A stretch of 47,275 nt of DNA from Patescibacteria group bacterium (GTDB taxonomy: Bacteria; Patescibacteriota; Minisyncoccia; Phycocordibacterales; Phycocordibacteraceae), in assembly GCA_029260935.1 (NCBI GenBank), contig JAJDCJ010000006.1, forward strand, positions 1 through 47,275, written 5' to 3'. The notes below the pieces were generated by a model that saw only the letters and a program-made list of their open reading frames with translations, did no database searches and was not told the DNA's origin. The first letter of the stretch is position 1. The number at the start of each line of letters is the position of its first letter. This document shows positions 4,828 through 27,393 of the stretch, piece by piece. Both the position numbers and the translations under genes were made by a program.

Positions 4828-4855
4828 CACCTACTATGATTAATCATAGTAGGTG
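4828..4855. repeat. 28-bp perfect intergenic palindrome
   Basis: CACCTACTATGATT|AATCATAGTAGGTG with no loop and no U-tract. Confidence 0.85.
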
Positions 4856-9972: not shown

Positions 9973-10086
9973 GGTATAATCGTTTGGACTGAAGAAAGGG
10001 CTTGGTTATGGGCCTGTAAGCAAAGCTTGCATGCCCGTCACTCGAAGATAATGTAAAAGATTACTTTTCCGTTATCCTTCTTGCTA

Positions 10087-10159
10087 GGGCCTGTAGCTCA
10101 ATTGGTAGAGCGCCTCATTTGCACTGAGGAGGCAGCGGGTTCGAATCCTGTCAGGTCCA
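10087..10159 (+). tRNA. tRNA-Ala (anticodon TGC), CCA not encoded
   Basis: Cloverleaf with GGGCCTG/CAGGTCC acceptor carrying G3:U70, GCTC/GAGC D-stem, CCTCA-TTTGCAC-TGAGG anticodon arm, TTCGAAT T-loop, discriminator A. Confidence 0.97.
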
Positions 10160-10341
10160 CAATAAAAATTCCTGCCTTTTTGGTAGGATATTTTTGTTGT
10201 GAGATCTGAGAAAGGTATCTGCATACCTTTCGTGCAGGATTCGAAAGCGGTTGAGTATATGAATGAGTCCGCAGAATGACGGACGAAATGAATACGAAAC
10301 CCGTACTGCTCCTGTAAGGAGAGAATCCTGTCAGGTCCACA
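10143..10341 (+). repeat. 19-bp direct repeat of the tRNA 3' end
   Basis: GAATCCTGTCAGGTCCACA at 10143-10161 and 10323-10341. Confidence 0.9.
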
Positions 10342-10551
10342 GAACGCTCATCCTGAAGTAATCACTTCAGGATTTTTGCGTTTCTGTAGGGCTTGGCAGG
10401 ATTCGAAAAGAGGCTGTTGCGAAGCCTCAAGAGAATACTTGAGTAACAGCCGACGGGGTCGCGTCGCTTAGTATTTTATGAGTATGCGAAATAAAATACT
10501 AAGCAAAGGTGACCGATGCGTGCGAGGCAACGCCGTAGACACATCCTGTCG

Positions 10552-10571
10552 ATGTATCATATATGATACAT
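10552..10571. repeat. Palindrome family C copy 1
   Basis: ATGTATCATATATGATACAT, perfect 20-mer. Confidence 0.92.
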
Positions 10572-10652
10572 TTTACTTTTTATGTTTTTTAGAAACTAAA
10601 GGTATTTCTCTCTCGTCGTGTTTATGGTATACGGAAAACTGAAGTTAAGGGA

Positions 10653-10672
10653 ATGTATCATATATGATACAT
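10653..10672. repeat. Palindrome family C copy 2
   Basis: ATGTATCATATATGATACAT, perfect 20-mer. Confidence 0.92.
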
Positions 10673-10841
10673 TTTTATTTTTTTTTATGTTTTGTATGGT
10701 CTAGTAGAGTTTAATAGGATTTTAAGAGAGGGCGAGGCAAAGCCGTAGACACATCCTGTCAATGACGGGTGACCACAAAAATGTAGTTCAAAACACTGAG
10801 TAAAGATAACCGAATCCTGAGCGTGGTAGCATATACACTAT

Positions 10842-11024
10842 ATGGATAAATATTTACATCAAGTTGCAATGTGGTCAATTTTAATTGGCGCACTTATTCT
10901 TTTATACATTGCGTATCTGTGGTTTACCGAAGGGAATACTCTTATGAGCCTCGGTATGTTTATTATGGGAGTTGTCGCGTTTTCTAACTTTTATCTGCAC
11001 AGGAGAATGATGGGTCATAGATGA
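10842..11024 (+). CDS. Small two-TM hypothetical membrane protein
   Basis: 60-aa ORF with two hydrophobic stretches. Confidence 0.6.
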   Translation: MDKYLHQVAMWSILIGALILLYIAYLWFTEGNTLMSLGMFIMGVVAFSNFYLHRRMMGHR

Positions 11025-17694: not shown

Positions 17695-17859
17695 ATGAGT
17701 GAGCGCATTGATTTAAAAGATACTATTGAACGCCCTAAGATCTGTGAAGGGCCGAAGGGTATGGGAGTGTGTTCACAAACAGGTATATATCGTCCCGATT
17801 TAGGGTACTACATCTGTGACACGTGTTACGAGTCCTATAAAATTGAAGAAGATGAGTGA
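17695..17859 (+). CDS. 54-aa four-Cys microprotein overlapping the leuS start (not in ORF track)
   Basis: MSERIDLKDTIERPKICEGPKGMGVCSQTGIYRPDLGYYICDTCYESYKIEEDE; C-x8-C...CxxC; last 8 nt overlap leuS. Confidence 0.6.
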   Translation: MSERIDLKDTIERPKICEGPKGMGVCSQTGIYRPDLGYYICDTCYESYKIEEDE

Positions 17860-20206
17860 ATACGACCACAAAAAAATAGAGGAAAAGTGGCAGAAACGTT
17901 GGGAAGAAGCGGGACTGTATAGAACGGAGGACGCCGTTCAAGGAAAAGAAAATTTTTATACCTTAGTTGAGTTTCCATATCCGTCAGGAGATCTTCATAT
18001 TGGGCACTGGTCTGCGTTTGCGGTGCCTGATATTTTTGCCCGTATGAAGCGTATGCAGGGATACAACATGTTATATCCCATTGGTTTTGATGCGTTTGGT
18101 TTGCCTGCGGAAAACGCCGCTATCAAACACGGTGCGGACCCGGCAGAATGGACCCTTAAGAACATTGAGAGAATGCGCCTTCAGTTGAAACAAATGGGTA
18201 ATATGTTTGACTGGGACAGGGAAGTGTCTGCCTGCGACCCGAGTTTTTATAGATGGACGCAGTGGCTTTTCCTGCAACTTTTTAATAAAGGTTTGGCATA
18301 CAAGAAAAAAGCAGTGGTGAACTGGGACCCGGTTGACCAAACAGTGCTCGCAAATGAGCAGGTGCTTTCCGATGGCACGGCCGAGAGAAGTGGTGCGAAA
18401 GTTGAGAAAAAAGAACTTTCGCAATGGTTTTTGAAAATTACCGAGTACGCAGACCGCCTTATTGATGACTTGGATGGTTTGGCCTGGCCGGAACCCATCA
18501 AAGACGCGCAGAGAAACTGGATTGGAAGAAACGAAGGAGCAAAAATTGAATTTGATATATCAAGTTTTGATAAGAAAATAGAGATATTTACGACGCGTCC
18601 CGATACGCTATACGGGGCAACGTATGTGGTGCTTGCGCCGGAACACCCGCTTGTTACAGAGCTTGCAGGTACTATGATTAATCATAGTGAAGTCAGGCAG
18701 TATGTCGAAGCAGCGGCAACAAAGAGTGACCTTGAGCGACAGGAACATAAAGAAAAAACTGGCGTTGAGTTGAAAGGCGTGAAGGCGGTCAATCCTGGGA
18801 GTAAAGAAGAAATTCCCATTTTTATTGCCGACTATGTACTTTCCGGTTATGGCACCGGCGCCATTATGGCGGTGCCCGCGCACGACGAGCGTGATAGAGA
18901 GTTTGCAAAGAAATTTAATTTGCCGGTACGGACAGTTGTGTCTGAAGAGGGAACACTTGTTGATTCTGGAACATTTGACGGAATGACCAGCGAAGATGCA
19001 AAACAAAAAATTACTGAACACGTCGGTGGAAAAATGACCACAACATACCGCCAGCGCGACTGGCTTATTTCGCGTCAGCGCTACTGGGGCACACCAATAC
19101 CTATTGTGTACGACCCGGAAGGGAATGCGCACGCCATTTCCGACGAGCACCTGCCGTGGGTTTTACCAAGCGATGTTGATTTTACGCCCACCGGTGAAGC
19201 GCCGCTCGCCCGTTCAAAGGAATTAAAAGAGCGGGTAGAAAAACTTTTTGGAAAAGGATGGACACCGGAAGTAGACACCTTTGATACGTTCGTTGATTCG
19301 TCGTGGTATTTCCTCCGCTACCTTGACCCAAAGAACGAAAAAGAATTTGCTTCAAAAGAATTACAGAAAGCATGGATGCCCGTTGGGCGTTATTCAGGTG
19401 GAGCCGAGCACACCACAATGCACATCCTCTATTCTCGTTTTTTTATCAAAGCGCTTTATGACCTCGGGCTTGTAACAGAACATGAACCGTACACGGTGCG
19501 CATGAACCGCGGGCTTATTTTGGCTGAGGACGGCAGAAAAATGAGCAAGAGATGGGGGAACACAGTGAATCCTGATGAGCAGGTGAATAATGTTGGTGCA
19601 GATTCTGTAAAAATGTACTTGGCATTTATCGGCCCCTACAATGAAGTGAGTTCGTATCCGTGGAATACGAACGGACTTATTGGTGTGCGTCGTTTCTTAG
19701 AGCGCGTATGGATCCTTCAAGATCATCTATCGGATGATTCCAGTGACAATACGCTTGGGGGGCTCGTCCACCGAAGCATTAAGAAGGTTGGGGACGATGT
19801 CGAGTCTATGAAATTTAACACCTCAGTTTCGGCTTTGATGATTCTTTCAAATGAATTTCAGAAACTTGAAACAGTGCCTCAGGATGCGTATGAAATTTTC
19901 CTTAAACTCCTCGCACCGTTTGCCCCTCATATGGCAGAGGAGCTGTGGGAGCGACTTGGGCACACCACTTCTATTCACCTTGAAACATGGCCTGTCTATG
20001 ACCCACAATTAGCTCAGTCAGATACGGTGGCAATAGTGTTGCAGATTAACGGAAAAAAACGAGGAGTGCTTGAAATAGGACATGATAGCTCGCAGGAAGA
20101 GGTTTTAGCGGCTATTCAAAGAGATCAGAAATTGCTAAAATACATTGATTTTAAGCCAAAAAAAGTTGTTTTCGTTCCAAATAAGATCATTAATTTTATT
20201 GTGTAG
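17852..20206 (+). CDS. leuS: Leucine--tRNA ligase
   Basis: FPYPSGDLHIGH, TTRPDT editing domain, KMSKR; ATG 17852. Confidence 0.98.
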   Translation: MSEYDHKKIEEKWQKRWEEAGLYRTEDAVQGKENFYTLVEFPYPSGDLHIGHWSAFAVPDIFARMKRMQGYNMLYPIGFDAFGLPAENAAIKHGADPAEWTLKNIERMRLQLKQMGNMFDWDREVSACDPSFYRWTQWLFLQLFNKGLAYKKKAVVNWDPVDQTVLANEQVLSDGTAERSGAKVEKKELSQWFLKITEYADRLIDDLDGLAWPEPIKDAQRNWIGRNEGAKIEFDISSFDKKIEIFTTRPDTLYGATYVVLAPEHPLVTELAGTMINHSEVRQYVEAAATKSDLERQEHKEKTGVELKGVKAVNPGSKEEIPIFIADYVLSGYGTGAIMAVPAHDERDREFAKKFNLPVRTVVSEEGTLVDSGTFDGMTSEDAKQKITEHVGGKMTTTYRQRDWLISRQRYWGTPIPIVYDPEGNAHAISDEHLPWVLPSDVDFTPTGEAPLARSKELKERVEKLFGKGWTPEVDTFDTFVDSSWYFLRYLDPKNEKEFASKELQKAWMPVGRYSGGAEHTTMHILYSRFFIKALYDLGLVTEHEPYTVRMNRGLILAEDGRKMSKRWGNTVNPDEQVNNVGADSVKMYLAFIGPYNEVSSYPWNTNGLIGVRRFLERVWILQDHLSDDSSDNTLGGLVHRSIKKVGDDVESMKFNTSVSALMILSNEFQKLETVPQDAYEIFLKLLAPFAPHMAEELWERLGHTTSIHLETWPVYDPQLAQSDTVAIVLQINGKKRGVLEIGHDSSQEEVLAAIQRDQKLLKYIDFKPKKVVFVPNKIINFIV

Positions 20207-24724: not shown

Positions 24725-25549
24725 ATGCGTATTGTAAAAGGAGATGGTTCACGTGAGGAATTTGATATTGAAAAACTAGAGCGGTCAATGCTACGCTCGG
24801 GAGCGCCCAAAGAAGCAGTGCATGCACTTGCCCTTAAAGTCACCGCAACTATTCGCGACGGCATGACCACCAGTGAAATTTATAGAAGCGCGTTTCGTCA
24901 ACTAAAAAAAGAAGAAAGCACCTTTGCCGCACGCTATTCTATGCGACGAGCAATACTTGAAATGGGCCCTACAGGGTTTCCATTTGAAGATTACTTTTGT
25001 GCTCTTATGAGGGCAAAAGGGTATCAGGCAAAAGTGAGACAAATTATCACCGGCACATGCACTCACCACGAGGTTGATGTTGTATTGGAAAAAGATGGAC
25101 TCACGATTGGTGCTGAGTTGAAATTTCATAATACGCCAGGATTTAAAACTGATTTAAAGACAGCACTCTACGTACGCGCACGTTTTTGGGATATTGAGTA
25201 TGCTATTGAAGACCAAAGCAAAAAAAGTAAAGTACAAGAAGGATGGCTCGTTACTAATACAAAATTTACAAGCCAGGCAATAGAGTATGGTGAGTGTGCA
25301 GGGATTAAATTACTTGGGTGGGGACATCCGACTGACTATAACCTTGCTGATATTGTGAGAGAGACAGGGCTGTATCCTATTACAGTGCTTACTACTTTAA
25401 CTAAAAAGGAACAGCGACAACTCCTTCAAAACCAAATAACAGTGTGTAAGGATATTCATAATAATCCAGATCTTCTTGCAAAAGCAGGTATTGCCAAGCG
25501 AAAACATCGTGAAATTATTGAGGAGAGTTTACGAATTTGTGGATCGTAA
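24725..25549 (+). CDS. ATP-cone plus Mrr-like PD-(D/E)XK nuclease domain protein
   Basis: IVKGDGSREEFD ATP-cone; GFPFE...HEVDV...ELKFH...LVTNTKFT. Confidence 0.8.
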   Translation: MRIVKGDGSREEFDIEKLERSMLRSGAPKEAVHALALKVTATIRDGMTTSEIYRSAFRQLKKEESTFAARYSMRRAILEMGPTGFPFEDYFCALMRAKGYQAKVRQIITGTCTHHEVDVVLEKDGLTIGAELKFHNTPGFKTDLKTALYVRARFWDIEYAIEDQSKKSKVQEGWLVTNTKFTSQAIEYGECAGIKLLGWGHPTDYNLADIVRETGLYPITVLTTLTKKEQRQLLQNQITVCKDIHNNPDLLAKAGIAKRKHREIIEESLRICGS

Positions 25550-25566
25550 AATGGTATACTTTTGAA

Positions 25567-26415
25567 ATGTCAGGATATTACAAACCAGATCGGAGAAAAG
25601 ACTGGAACTATGGTGGCCCTCGTTGGCGTCTCTCTCGGTCAAAAATAGACCTTTTTAAGGAGTGCGCACGATGTTTTTATATTGACAATAAGTTAGGAAC
25701 GGCACGTCCACCGGGATATCCATTTAATCTCAACTCAGCAGTTGATACTCTTTTAAAAAAAGAATTTGATATTCACCGCGCAAAAAAGGAGGCGCATCCG
25801 TTGATGGTTGAATACGGTATTGATGCCATTCCATTTCAACACCCTGATTTAGATACGTGGCGTGAGAACTTCAAAGGTGTGCAAACCGTGCACACACCAA
25901 CAGGTTTTACTGTTTCAGGTGCCGTTGACGACGTATGGATAAACCCCGAAGGGGAACTTATCGTCGTTGACTATAAAGCAACAAGCAAAAACGGCGAAGT
26001 GAGTTTGGATGCTGATTGGCAGATAGGGTACAAAAGACAAATGGAGGTGTACCAATGGTTACTTAGACAAAATGGTTTTAAAGTTTCAGATACCGGCTAC
26101 TTTGTGTATGTAAACGGAAGAACAGATGTTGATACGTTTGATGCAAAACTAGAGTTTGATATGAAAATACTGCCATACAAAGGAGACGATAGCTGGGTTG
26201 AAGAGACATTACGTGATATTAAAAAGACGCTTGAGAGCGAAGCGATACCTACCTCGGGCGAAGATTGCGACTACTGCAAATACAGAGAGTTTACTGGAAA
26301 AAAATTACGCGCACAACATTTAGGACATAGTGAAAATTCTGCAGAAGATGTATCCAAGGGAAAGCATAAAAATAAAACAGAGGCAAAAAATGATCAAGAA
26401 TCACTTTTTACCTAA
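25567..26415 (+). CDS. PD-(D/E)XK nuclease (Cas4/AddB-like)
   Basis: LSRSKI...CARCF, GAVDD, VVDYKAT, QMEVY, CDYC. Confidence 0.85.
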   Translation: MSGYYKPDRRKDWNYGGPRWRLSRSKIDLFKECARCFYIDNKLGTARPPGYPFNLNSAVDTLLKKEFDIHRAKKEAHPLMVEYGIDAIPFQHPDLDTWRENFKGVQTVHTPTGFTVSGAVDDVWINPEGELIVVDYKATSKNGEVSLDADWQIGYKRQMEVYQWLLRQNGFKVSDTGYFVYVNGRTDVDTFDAKLEFDMKILPYKGDDSWVEETLRDIKKTLESEAIPTSGEDCDYCKYREFTGKKLRAQHLGHSENSAEDVSKGKHKNKTEAKNDQESLFT

Positions 26416-26451: not shown

Positions 26452-26477
26452 AAAATGTATCATATATGATACATTTT
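26452..26477. repeat. Palindrome family C copy 3, at the TrpR-like gene stop
   Basis: AAAATGTATCATATATGATACATTTT, 26-bp perfect. Confidence 0.92.
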
Positions 26478-26905
26478 TATTTTTTCTTTGGTTTGGGTTC
26501 AGGGAAGAAAAGGAAGTGTAGAGGATATTTTTTCTTGAGTGCGGCATACCCAAATGGATTTCTTTTTCGCTCAGCTTGTAGTGCTCGTTTATCCATTTCT
26601 TTTTCTAATCCCTGTATTACTTGTTCGTATCCAGGCATTTGGTCATTGAGCCATTTTTCAACGCGCCAAATAGTGTTTCGGCTAACTTTTAATTTTGCGC
26701 CGATTTCAACTCTTGTATGATTGCTGAGAAGGAGGCGTGCTATCCATATGCGTCTACCGAGCATAATGCGCTCGCTAGGGGTTAATAAGTCCCGTAGGAA
26801 CAATTTCGCTGCTGCTCGCCCACGGATGTGTGCTGCTGATGTGTATAGCATGTCCAGAGTGTGCATTTTCTCTTTTTCTGTTAAGTCGCTTAATTTTTTC
26901 TTCAT
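26477..26905 (-). CDS. TrpR-like (YerC/YecD family) HTH protein
   Basis: FLRDLLTPSERIMLGRRIWIARLL...EIGAKLKVSRNTIWRV matches the TrpR/YerC pattern. Confidence 0.85.
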   Translation of the reverse strand: MKKKLSDLTEKEKMHTLDMLYTSAAHIRGRAAAKLFLRDLLTPSERIMLGRRIWIARLLLSNHTRVEIGAKLKVSRNTIWRVEKWLNDQMPGYEQVIQGLEKEMDKRALQAERKRNPFGYAALKKKYPLHFLFFPEPKPKKK

Positions 26906-26939
26906 ATCAAGAATGTATCATATATGATACATTCTTGAT
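26906..26939. promoter_or_regulatory. Palindrome family C copy 4, abutting the TrpR-like start codon (candidate operator)
   Basis: ATCAAGAATGTATCATATATGATACATTCTTGAT, 34-bp perfect palindrome. Confidence 0.8.
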
Positions 26940-27065
26940 GGGGTGGTGATATACGGAAGTGGAAAGTTTATGCATGCAAAAGATTCGTTTGAAAAGGAGA
27001 TTTAGATTAGTAAAAAGATTTTTTAATTCTTCTTCTGTTTAAGGGTTTGGTTTTTTATTTCGCGG

Positions 27066-27085
27066 ATGTATCATATATGATACAT
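27066..27085. repeat. Palindrome family C copy 5
   Basis: ATGTATCATATATGATACAT in the divergent intergenic region. Confidence 0.92.
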
Positions 27086-27132: not shown

Positions 27133-27393
27133 ATGAAAAAACAGACGATGTTTCGTAAGCGAGTTGAAGAGGTGGTGAGATCAATCAAAAAAGGAGAAAC
27201 GAGAAGCTATGGTGAAGTTGCGACTGCTGTTGGCAGTCCGGGTGCGGCGCGTGCAGTGGGCACGGTGATGCGCACGAACAAAGATACAAGTGTGCCGTGC
27301 CACCGCGTAGTCGCTAAAAATGGCATCGGTGGTTACAATGGCCTTTGCGGTGAAAAAGAAGCTCTGCTTCGCAAGGAAGGCGCACTCAAGTAA
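27133..27393 (+). CDS. Single-domain methylated-DNA--protein-cysteine methyltransferase (MGMT/Ogt family)
   Basis: SYGEVA, ARAVG, PCHRVV active site. Confidence 0.9.
   Translation: MKKQTMFRKRVEEVVRSIKKGETRSYGEVATAVGSPGAARAVGTVMRTNKDTSVPCHRVVAKNGIGGYNGLCGEKEALLRKEGALK

Follow-up and report, generated by a model that had tools for sequence, protein, structure and literature searches.

The stretch of DNA described here (hereafter the window) is a contig of 47,275 nucleotides from a Patescibacteria group bacterium (GenBank assembly GCA_029260935.1, contig JAJDCJ010000006.1), and it contains a TrpR/YerC-like gene that is bracketed at its start and its stop by copies of one perfect palindrome. Judged from genome sequences, this palindrome-gene-palindrome unit, or cassette, is conserved through a large family of Patescibacteria genes. 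The palindrome is probably, with a likelihood of about 0.6, the private operator of the TrpR/YerC-like dimer encoded between its copies, and the module as a whole is most likely an accessory repressor-operator pair that would repress itself from a leaderless-type promoter and be exchanged by recombination.

The palindrome and its copies

An earlier note on the window, made from the letters alone, had reported five copies of a 20-mer, ATGTATCATATATGATACAT, at positions 10552, 10653, 26455, 26913 and 27066. All five proved exact; the window holds no further match with one to three mismatches, and 100 dinucleotide shuffles of the window gave no match at all (0/100, with 0 expected). The window is contig C17 of a genome (G000) of 695 kb in 21 contigs that is 98% complete, and the genome-wide count that the note had proposed as a check found seven copies of the 18-bp core, TGTATCATATATGATACA, all of them perfect (7/7), the next-best sequences carrying four mismatches. 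The two copies outside the window are located at C9:23902, between convergent rpsA-like and pth genes, and at C4:36240 (36240-36257), within a MutY-like open reading frame (ORF) where the core translates as VSYMIQ. Among 389 loci of other organisms and this one, the exact 18-mer is carried by G000, L154 and L172 alone, and none of 80 metagenome loci has it.

Three of the copies surround the TrpR/YerC-like gene, which occupies positions 26477-26905 of the minus strand and encodes 142 aa. The start-side palindrome (26906-26939), the putative operator of the gene, is perfect over 34 bp and abuts the ATG (26903-26905 in plus-strand numbering); it overlaps TACATT, a TANNNT hexamer whose end is 6 nt from the ATG. 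The stop-side palindrome (26452-26477, with its core at 26456-26473) is perfect over 26 bp, overlaps the stop codon (26477-26479) by one base and lies between the TrpR-like gene and a convergent nuclease gene that ends at 26415, flanked by an A-run and, on the opposite side, by a T-run; its RNA hairpin energies are -10.8 and -11.3 kcal/mol on the two strands. The third copy (27066-27085) is found 133 bp beyond the start-side 20-mer and 47 nt upstream of a divergent MGMT-like gene, of which it may be the operator. This layout agrees with the earlier note, which had placed a 34-bp copy against the ATG, a 26-bp copy at the stop codon and a third copy about 130 bp upstream.

One palindrome at both ends of the gene

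A search of 41 related genomes found homologues of the gene in 21 of the 24 other genomes of the genus, with eight matches in G010 and six in G013. When DNA was fetched for 22 strong genus homologues, 20 of them had the same palindrome at start and stop, 0-45 nt from the start codon and -18 to +97 nt from the stop; L012 and L022 have a palindrome at the start only. The core varies from gene to gene, examples being TGATATCATATATGATATCA, ATTTCCATATATGGAAAT, AGTTCCATATATGGAACT, GACTTGATATATCAAGTC and TTTCCCATATATGGGAAA. G000 itself has two more TrpR-like genes, one on contig C8 and one on C16, and each stands between copies of a palindrome of its own (CTACTATGATTAATCATAGTAG and ATACTACGATTAATCGTAGTAT), so that three TrpR-like genes in one genome are flanked by three different palindromes; the identity between paralogues of one genome is about 50-60%. 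In relatives, TGTATCACTGTAGTACTACAGTGATACA brackets the genes of a third subfamily, which is YerC-like and shorter.

The arrangement extends far beyond the genus. A scan of species representatives returned 155 relatives, all in Patescibacteria records, whose titles name Kaiser-, Adler-, Nomura- and Zambryskibacteria and Paceibacterota. The best 80 of these 155 were taken as the phylum-wide loci, 78 of them with both flanks, and a start-side window of 116 nt was compared with a stop-side window of 160 nt. An identical word of at least 12 nt was present in 67 of the 78 loci, compared to 1/64 and 1/73 in controls with shifted windows. The expectation of the earlier note that homologues would be flanked by palindromes of their own is thus borne out both in the genus and across the phylum. 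Further support was provided by metagenomes, in which five of six loci inspected, out of 80 fetched, share a palindrome at both gene ends; the closest metagenome relative (73% identical) carries CGTATCATATATGATACG.

The part of the palindrome common to both flanks measures 18-20 bp, and individual copies are often longer perfect palindromes with copy-specific arms, which reach at least 12 in 50 of 108 sites and at least 15 in 21 of 108. The family comprises 952 proteins of similar length in the protein collection, and some genomes of 0.6-0.9 Mb hold up to 6-8 copies of the gene. In the literature searched, no description of palindrome-bracketed TrpR/YerC genes in Patescibacteria was found.

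The protein and its recognition helix

By sequence and fold, the encoded protein is a member of the TrpR/YerC family. Its match to Pfam Trp_repressor (PF01371, 2.7e-13) scores 50.2 bits against a cutoff of 27, the genome scan agrees, and Trp_repressor is the sole domain match, no nuclease, recombinase or transposase domain being found in the protein. The AlphaFold model has a pLDDT of 85.7, and its best Foldseek matches are 3kor, 3g1c and 3frw (target TM 0.78-0.83) and 1tro (0.62), although none of the E-values is better than 4e-3; when PDB sequences were searched with a profile, 3frw was reached at 7e-11. The overlap with the solved YerC-like and TrpR structures covers approximately residues 8-104, and the roughly 40 further residues make up a conserved tail. 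From end to end, the protein has an N-terminal dimer core, a variable helix-turn-helix whose recognition helix spans roughly residues 75-85 (SRNTIWRVEKW) and, at the C terminus, a conserved tail, LKKKYPLHFL. When the protein was modelled as a homodimer, the score was 0.48 against 0.00 for the best control, although this pass may merely reflect the TrpR dimers that are already solved; the mark for a homodimer was reached by 20 of 30 proteins solved as one-chain pairs and by one of the 23 single-chain proteins. The runs of this model had a contact agreement of at least 46% and a partner pLDDT of at least 62.

The earlier note had seen no trp genes in the window, and the same holds for the whole 98%-complete genome, in which no match to HisA/F (PF00977) or TrpA (PF00290) was found. 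Judged by its targets, the protein is therefore not a HisR or TrpR regulator, and the palindrome sites adjoin genes other than those for histidine or tryptophan biosynthesis or uptake. A phage origin was considered and rejected, since two patterns run against viral contigs brought up no relative. Longer, fused forms of the family protein were looked for and none scored, which is weak evidence.

The family alignment shows that the N-terminal dimer core and the C-terminal tail are conserved and that the helix-turn-helix is variable. The helix was compared with the site at 74 loci, after six of the 80 phylum-wide loci had been dropped for want of a usable palindrome. Asp occurs at helix position 77 in 31 of the 32 loci with a GATATATC center and in one of the 42 loci with other centers, an association that is not correctable for shared descent because the tree of a 140-aa protein is too weakly supported; Asn mostly accompanies TCATATATGA. 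Within this limit, the palindrome goes along with a residue of the recognition helix, as the earlier note had anticipated.

These regularities bear on a very different explanation, namely that the palindromes act only as RNA hairpins, serving as bidirectional terminators or as stabilizers of mRNA ends, and that the encoded protein has no role. Several properties of the copies in the window's genome speak in its favor: five of the seven core copies are followed by a T-run, the C9 copy reads A7-core-T7 and occupies the spot where relatives have GC-rich bidirectional terminators, the hairpin energies of the copies range from -8.7 to -19 kcal/mol, and the obvious terminators of the genome are also perfect palindromes. 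Family-wide, however, U-tracts are rare, both at stop-side sites (10/63 and 6/63) and at start-side sites (11/63 and 10/63). The center of the palindrome is itself symmetric, for which a hairpin loop has no need, and the genome holds 47 palindromes without any loop, compared to the 3-5 or so that the arithmetic of this analysis predicts from the number of hairpins with a 4-nt loop. Furthermore, a terminator gives no reason for the identity of the start-side and stop-side sites, for the differences between paralogues or for the link with a helix residue, all of which makes hairpins alone a very improbable account. A hairpin with arms of 19 bp and a 4-nt loop at about 28152-28193 (L008 3173-3214), between convergent rluB-like and UDG genes, looks like an ordinary bidirectional terminator, unlike the palindromes under study.

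Sites inside conserved genes follow the resident cassette

The strongest result of the analysis, drawn from the comparison of genomes, is that a site in the MutY-like gene tracks the palindrome of the resident cassette. At one codon position of this gene, G000 has TGTATCATATATGATACA, G016 has ATTTCCATATATGGAAAT, G007 has AGTTCCATATATGGAACT and G005 has CACCCATATATGGGTG, and in each of the four genomes (4/4) this is the palindrome of that genome's own cassette. The palindrome of G016 has three copies genome-wide, which are the two flanks of the cassette and the MutY-like site. In G000, the usual Pro-Tyr-Met of the MutY-like loop is now Ser-Tyr-Met, which fits the local palindrome.

A second locus behaves in the same way. 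The leuS gene of the window contains, at 18671-18688 and in frame (TMINHS), the palindrome ACTATGATTAATCATAGT, which belongs to the family flanking the second TrpR-like gene, on contig C8; an intergenic copy of this second-family palindrome is found at 4828-4855. At the same leuS codons, G017 has ACTACGGTTAACCGTAGT, with paired substitutions relative to G000 that keep the symmetry, and its second-subfamily TrpR-like gene is flanked by AAATACTACGGTTAACCGTAGTATTT, so that the leuS site matches each genome's own second-subfamily cassette. Neither the leuS nor the MutY-like site is an insertion; both stand at conserved codon positions. Extra copies that keep their codon positions and change with the resident cassette, at two loci, fit maintained targets or concerted copying and not random seeding. 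Hence, the suggestion of the earlier note that binding sites are seeded elsewhere stands insofar as extra copies exist, but not in the sense of a random scatter.

The tracking is not universal. Two genomes that lack a family-1 cassette (G042 and G043) have a decayed MutY-like site, and most other cassette-bearing genomes have no palindrome at the MutY-like position, both of which run counter to a simple reading.

Some further observations concern the same genes. In G000, the MutY-like ORF contains the palindromes of two TrpR-like paralogues 190 bp apart, at C4:36433-36458 (TTMINHS) and C4:36240-36257 (VSYMIQ), and G023 has a perfect ACTATGATATATCATAGT at the first of these positions. MutY-like matches in G024, G004, G020, G011 and G014 each contain one in-frame TAG. 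Among relatives of the window's leuS gene (17852-20206; relatives L100-L129), the open frame that holds leuS varies from 752 to 1009 aa; in G010, about 540 nt interrupt the match to a query of 167 aa, hinting at an in-frame insert close to the editing domain.

The two solo copies in the window lie downstream of a tRNA-Ala gene, at 10552-10571 and, 101 bp from the first, at 10653-10672, and the pair is bracketed by a 33-nt direct repeat at 10522 and 10732 whose copies are 94% identical. The last 19 nt of the tRNA-Ala (10143-10161) are repeated at 10323-10341, and the region 10087-10764 has the look of a scar that repeated insertion or duplication left downstream of the tRNA. The idea that the solo copies enclose the remains of a gene was considered and rejected, as the local alignment to the cassette scored within the shuffle range. 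An Rfam scan of the window returned the tRNA-Ala alone at the gathering score and nothing credible around 10000-11000 at E-values up to 10.

An accessory cassette in a conserved gene block

As the earlier note had observed, the TrpR-like gene stands alone on the minus strand in a plus-strand run: its neighbors mnmA, ATP-cone/Mrr, PD-(D/E)XK nuclease, MGMT-like and rluB-like are all on the plus strand, and the next minus-strand gene is UDG (28195-28896). The PD-(D/E)XK nuclease gene (25537-26415, plus strand; Pfam PDDEXK_1, 3.8e-15) is the conserved left flank of the cassette site. The MGMT/Ogt-like gene (27133-27393, plus strand; Pfam DNA_binding_1, 1.5e-26), which is divergent from the TrpR-like gene, encodes a protein of 86 aa that is limited to the DNA-binding/active-site domain and retains the PCHR motif.

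The block mnmA - ATP-cone/Mrr - nuclease - MGMT - UDG is kept across the genus, and the cassette comes and goes within it. Of 30 loci, five (G000, G013, G016, G023 and G010) have it between the nuclease and MGMT genes, and these five syntenic cassettes bear four different palindromes; one (G045) has it between MGMT and UDG. In 17 of the 30 loci the junction is empty, the outcome that the earlier note had looked for in relatives, with gaps from -1 (an overlap) to 107 nt by tblastn ends; the remaining junctions contain unrelated small ORFs or are missing the MGMT gene. The nuclease/MGMT/UDG junction is a small hypervariable spot within a conserved block of DNA-repair genes, and unrelated ORFs of 126, 137, 171, 189 and 244 aa occupy the corresponding junctions of different genomes (L041-L069).

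An exchange is seen in the one close pair, G016 and G043, whose identity is 96.8-99.5% at the loci of leuS and pth and 97.9% over 2330 bp ending at the nuclease stop codon. Past this codon, G016 has a cassette, in the same three-site layout as the window, and an MGMT-like gene only 76.7% identical to that of G043, and in UDG the identity returns to 92.9%. The exchanged block thus includes the MGMT-like gene and ends in conserved neighbors, which fits homologous replacement. The syntenic cassettes of G013 and G016 are 69% identical between flanks of 78-85%, and another cassette common to these two genomes is 88% identical, as similar as its flanks. A near-identical cassette in two different contexts was not seen, either between genomes or within one. 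Taken together, these comparisons indicate that the module is most likely accessory and swapped by recombination in the flanking genes. The idea put forward in the earlier note, of a minimal cassette made of a DNA-binding gene and its own sites, holds to the extent that the cassette is present or absent as a unit; self-movement finds no such backing, given that the G016/G043 block looks like homologous replacement.

The same comparisons can be read in another way, in which a recombinase encoded elsewhere would use the palindromes as crossover points to invert, excise or integrate the cassette, the TrpR-like protein serves as a site-recognition or directionality factor, and the solo palindromes are landing pads or footprints. 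Because the palindromes are both direct and inverted repeats of each other, either outcome would be possible at the same sites. In L154 and L172, two contigs of one assembly, both flanks are 89-93% identical and the cassette has opposite orientations, the switch of orientation adjoining the palindromes; in G045, the cassette lies on the other side of the MGMT-like gene, between it and UDG; and its presence or absence at one junction would also be accounted for. However, the inversion is a single case between copies only about 83% identical, which are not switching variants; empty junctions of 2-14 bp retain no solo palindrome; the G016/G043 difference ends in the flanking genes and not at the palindromes; and no recombinase gene was found beside the cassette. 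Site-specific crossover at the palindromes is therefore judged unlikely.

Sequencing data of three DNA runs from one study list no alternative joints, but these are contigs only, in which rare forms cannot show. The contigs of the public runs stop at palindromes, and their loose ends reach the flanks of other copies that share about 32 nt with the stop-side copy, as is expected from assembly graphs; they are uninformative on inversion or expression.

Proposed working of the module

Across the family, the center of the start-side palindrome most often lies 18 nt before the ATG, and TANNNT hexamers are most frequent with their end 6 nt before the ATG (21 of 79 loci, compared to at most 14 at any other offset). 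This geometry fits a -10 element of a leaderless or near-leaderless mRNA, which a bound dimer would cover. At the start-side copy, which overlaps such a -10-like hexamer, the bound protein would repress its own gene, and the third copy would control the divergent MGMT-like gene likewise. The few further copies, in the MutY-like ORF, between the rpsA-like and pth genes and in the pair after the tRNA-Ala, may be extra targets that change together with the protein. A Shine-Dalgarno sequence is present in 4 of 79 family genes, but its absence was dismissed as a special feature, since it was found in just 29 of 308 long ORFs of the genome and is not distinctive.

The copy at the stop codon is not explained by self-repression, a point that the earlier note had already raised. 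It might be a second operator at the far end of the unit, where a bound dimer could conceivably block RNA polymerase arriving from either side. In 53 of 71 loci, the next gene downstream converges on the TrpR-like gene, as judged from crude calls of ORFs of at least 90 aa, and this frequency favors a protein roadblock or insulator between converging transcription, a role that is put forward with low confidence. Looping between the flanking copies, which the earlier note had also suggested, was tried and abandoned: in 54 loci with a median center distance of 479 bp, the spacing has no 10.5-bp periodicity (Rayleigh p 0.49), and a p of 0.008 at 11.0 bp was not counted because it is one of five periods tried on related sequences.

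Perfect copies and the possibility of DNA-level copying

A number of observations weigh against the palindrome being simply the operator of the dimer. The association between helix and site comes down to one independent pair on the supported branches of the tree, and different helices are found with one palindrome, both in L009 and L010 and in L154, L172 and G000. A perfect CACCCATATATGGGTG persists at the MutY-like site of three genomes (G013, G001 and G002) in which no cassette has this palindrome. Operators of ordinary regulons degenerate, whereas here all seven copies are perfect, and G007 and G010 have 19 and 11 identical copies, respectively, several of them inside long ORFs. The arms of at least 12, found in 50 of 108 sites, are unique to each copy, and the footprint of a dimer gives no account of them. 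The roadblock role of the stop-side copy, finally, is pure conjecture. In the pair G016 and G043, the identity falls from 95-100% to 63-80% over about 180 nt around the MutY-like site, although this locus has other dips in identity too. Perfect copies, private long arms and a patch of low identity would all fit DNA-level copying or homogenization better than the ordinary evolution of operators.

One explanation along these lines is a selfish system of palindrome plus protein, the helix-turn-helix counterpart of REP-RAYT, in which the protein keeps and spreads its own palindrome: the copies at the gene ends would mark the element, and the dispersed copies would be its offspring, kept identical by copying at the DNA level instead of by selection for gene control. 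More specifically, the TrpR-like dimer and the palindrome might form a self-perpetuating pair, a non-HUH analogue of REP-RAYT, in which the dimer marks the palindrome and the resident sequence is copied into partly similar sites, overwriting codons in genes such as leuS and the MutY-like gene. Template switching at stalled forks and short-tract conversion, at bound or extruded palindromes, are candidate routes, and such a process would keep every copy perfect and lengthen each one into a longer private palindrome.

The genome of the window lends this explanation some weight. The earlier note had found no transposase in the window, and indeed no Y1 transposase gene is present on its contig; eight Y1_Tnp (RAYT/IS200-like) genes, however, lie elsewhere in the genome, including C19:14120-14803, C20:5293-5937 and C21:929-1618. 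Three of the eight were inspected, and each has odd-length palindromes (xxGAC(R)TC-S-GA(Y)GTCxx) of its own at its flanks; these have 5-14 occurrences, and REP copies are found in the window near 1703, 5999, 7617 and 32510. Genes and repeats together have the appearance of REP-RAYT systems within a Patescibacteria genome. The genome as a whole has a large excess of perfect palindromes: with arms of at least 10, there are 47 without a loop and 67 with a one-base loop, compared to about one of each per shuffle, and most of those with a one-base loop are REP-like repeats. The REP-RAYT and TrpR-like cassettes of this genome have one architecture, and both have longer perfect copies with copy-specific arms. 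It is the presence of classical REP-RAYT systems with the same layout in the same genome that keeps the selfish explanation alive; the all-or-none perfection of the copies, their number, which varies from 1 to 19 between related genomes, the in-frame copies inside leuS, the MutY-like gene and other long ORFs, and the dip in identity at the MutY-like site, as a replaced patch would give, also agree with it.

Nevertheless, a palindrome that spreads itself through its protein appears doubtful. The protein has no nuclease or recombinase domain, and the search for longer fused forms points the same way, if weakly; no near-identical cassette occurs in two contexts of one genome; the flanks of the seven core copies share no homology beyond the overlaps of neighboring windows; and the leuS and MutY-like sites, at their conserved codons, are not insertions. 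Moreover, no mechanism is known by which a helix-turn-helix protein could copy 18 bp. The preferred interpretation thus remains a private operator that is recognized by the dimer encoded between its copies.

A further family of even palindromes, TGTGCGAATCCCGGGATTCGCACA, was observed in the same genome, with six copies that have unique extended arms (C4:4835, C6:17777, C8:215, C9:41314, C16:43777 and C16:44090); the two copies on C16 are 313 bp apart and adjoin a tyrosine-recombinase-like ORF fragment.

Implications

Patescibacteria have very few recognizable regulators, and their gene control is almost unknown. The bracketed layout means that a candidate operator for each member of the family can be read off both ends of its gene, and the hundreds of natural protein-site pairs obtained in this manner are material for a recognition code of the TrpR fold. 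They also allow direct predictions of targets in uncultivated organisms, which in G000 are DNA-repair genes (MGMT-like and MutY-like). The sites in essential genes that track the cassette imply either that operator and repressor specificity turn over fast together or that palindromes are copied without a transposase, a question that can be tested with the genome pairs G016/G043 and G000/G017.

Comparison with known systems

In REP-RAYT systems, a single gene is flanked by cognate palindromes that are dispersed in the genome and differ from paralogue to paralogue. The window gene is likewise flanked by cognate palindromes that are also dispersed, but its protein has the fold of a helix-turn-helix repressor, without the HUH/Tyr catalytic core, and the palindromes of its family are of even length, with an ATATAT or TTAA center, low in copy number (1-19) and in some cases in frame at conserved positions. 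In contrast to insertion sequences and transposons, the cassette has no catalytic domain and no near-identical copies, and its flanks are unrelated. The stop-side and C9 copies resemble bidirectional intrinsic terminators in having an A-run, a stem and a T-run between convergent genes; unlike terminators, they have short, AT-rich stems and the same sequence as the start-side site, and most members of the family lack U-tracts.

Private repressor-operator pairs, such as the controller proteins of restriction-modification systems, antitoxin autorepressors and the immunity repressors of phages, are small dimeric helix-turn-helix proteins that repress themselves via a palindrome; they are carried on accessory DNA, and their specificity diversifies between modules, which avoids cross-talk. 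The window cassette differs from them in that no toxin, restriction enzyme or phage genes are attached to it and in that its operator has further copies at the 3' end and at loci far away.

The closest relatives by fold, family and operator size are TrpR and HisR (YerC). In PMC9413887, this family is described as having 20-bp palindromic operators with a lineage-specific consensus and as frequently regulating itself from a site before the gene, HisR being mostly single copy; the TrpR motif quoted there resembles the outer TGTA...TACA of the window site. Unlike TrpR and HisR, the proteins of the window family are about 40 aa longer, with a conserved tail (LKKKYPLHFLLFP), and the window genome has no trp or his genes. 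Also in contrast to HisR, the family reaches 6-8 copies in genomes of 0.6-0.9 Mb, and its sites, private to each paralogue, are found at the stop as well as at the start of the gene and also inside ORFs.

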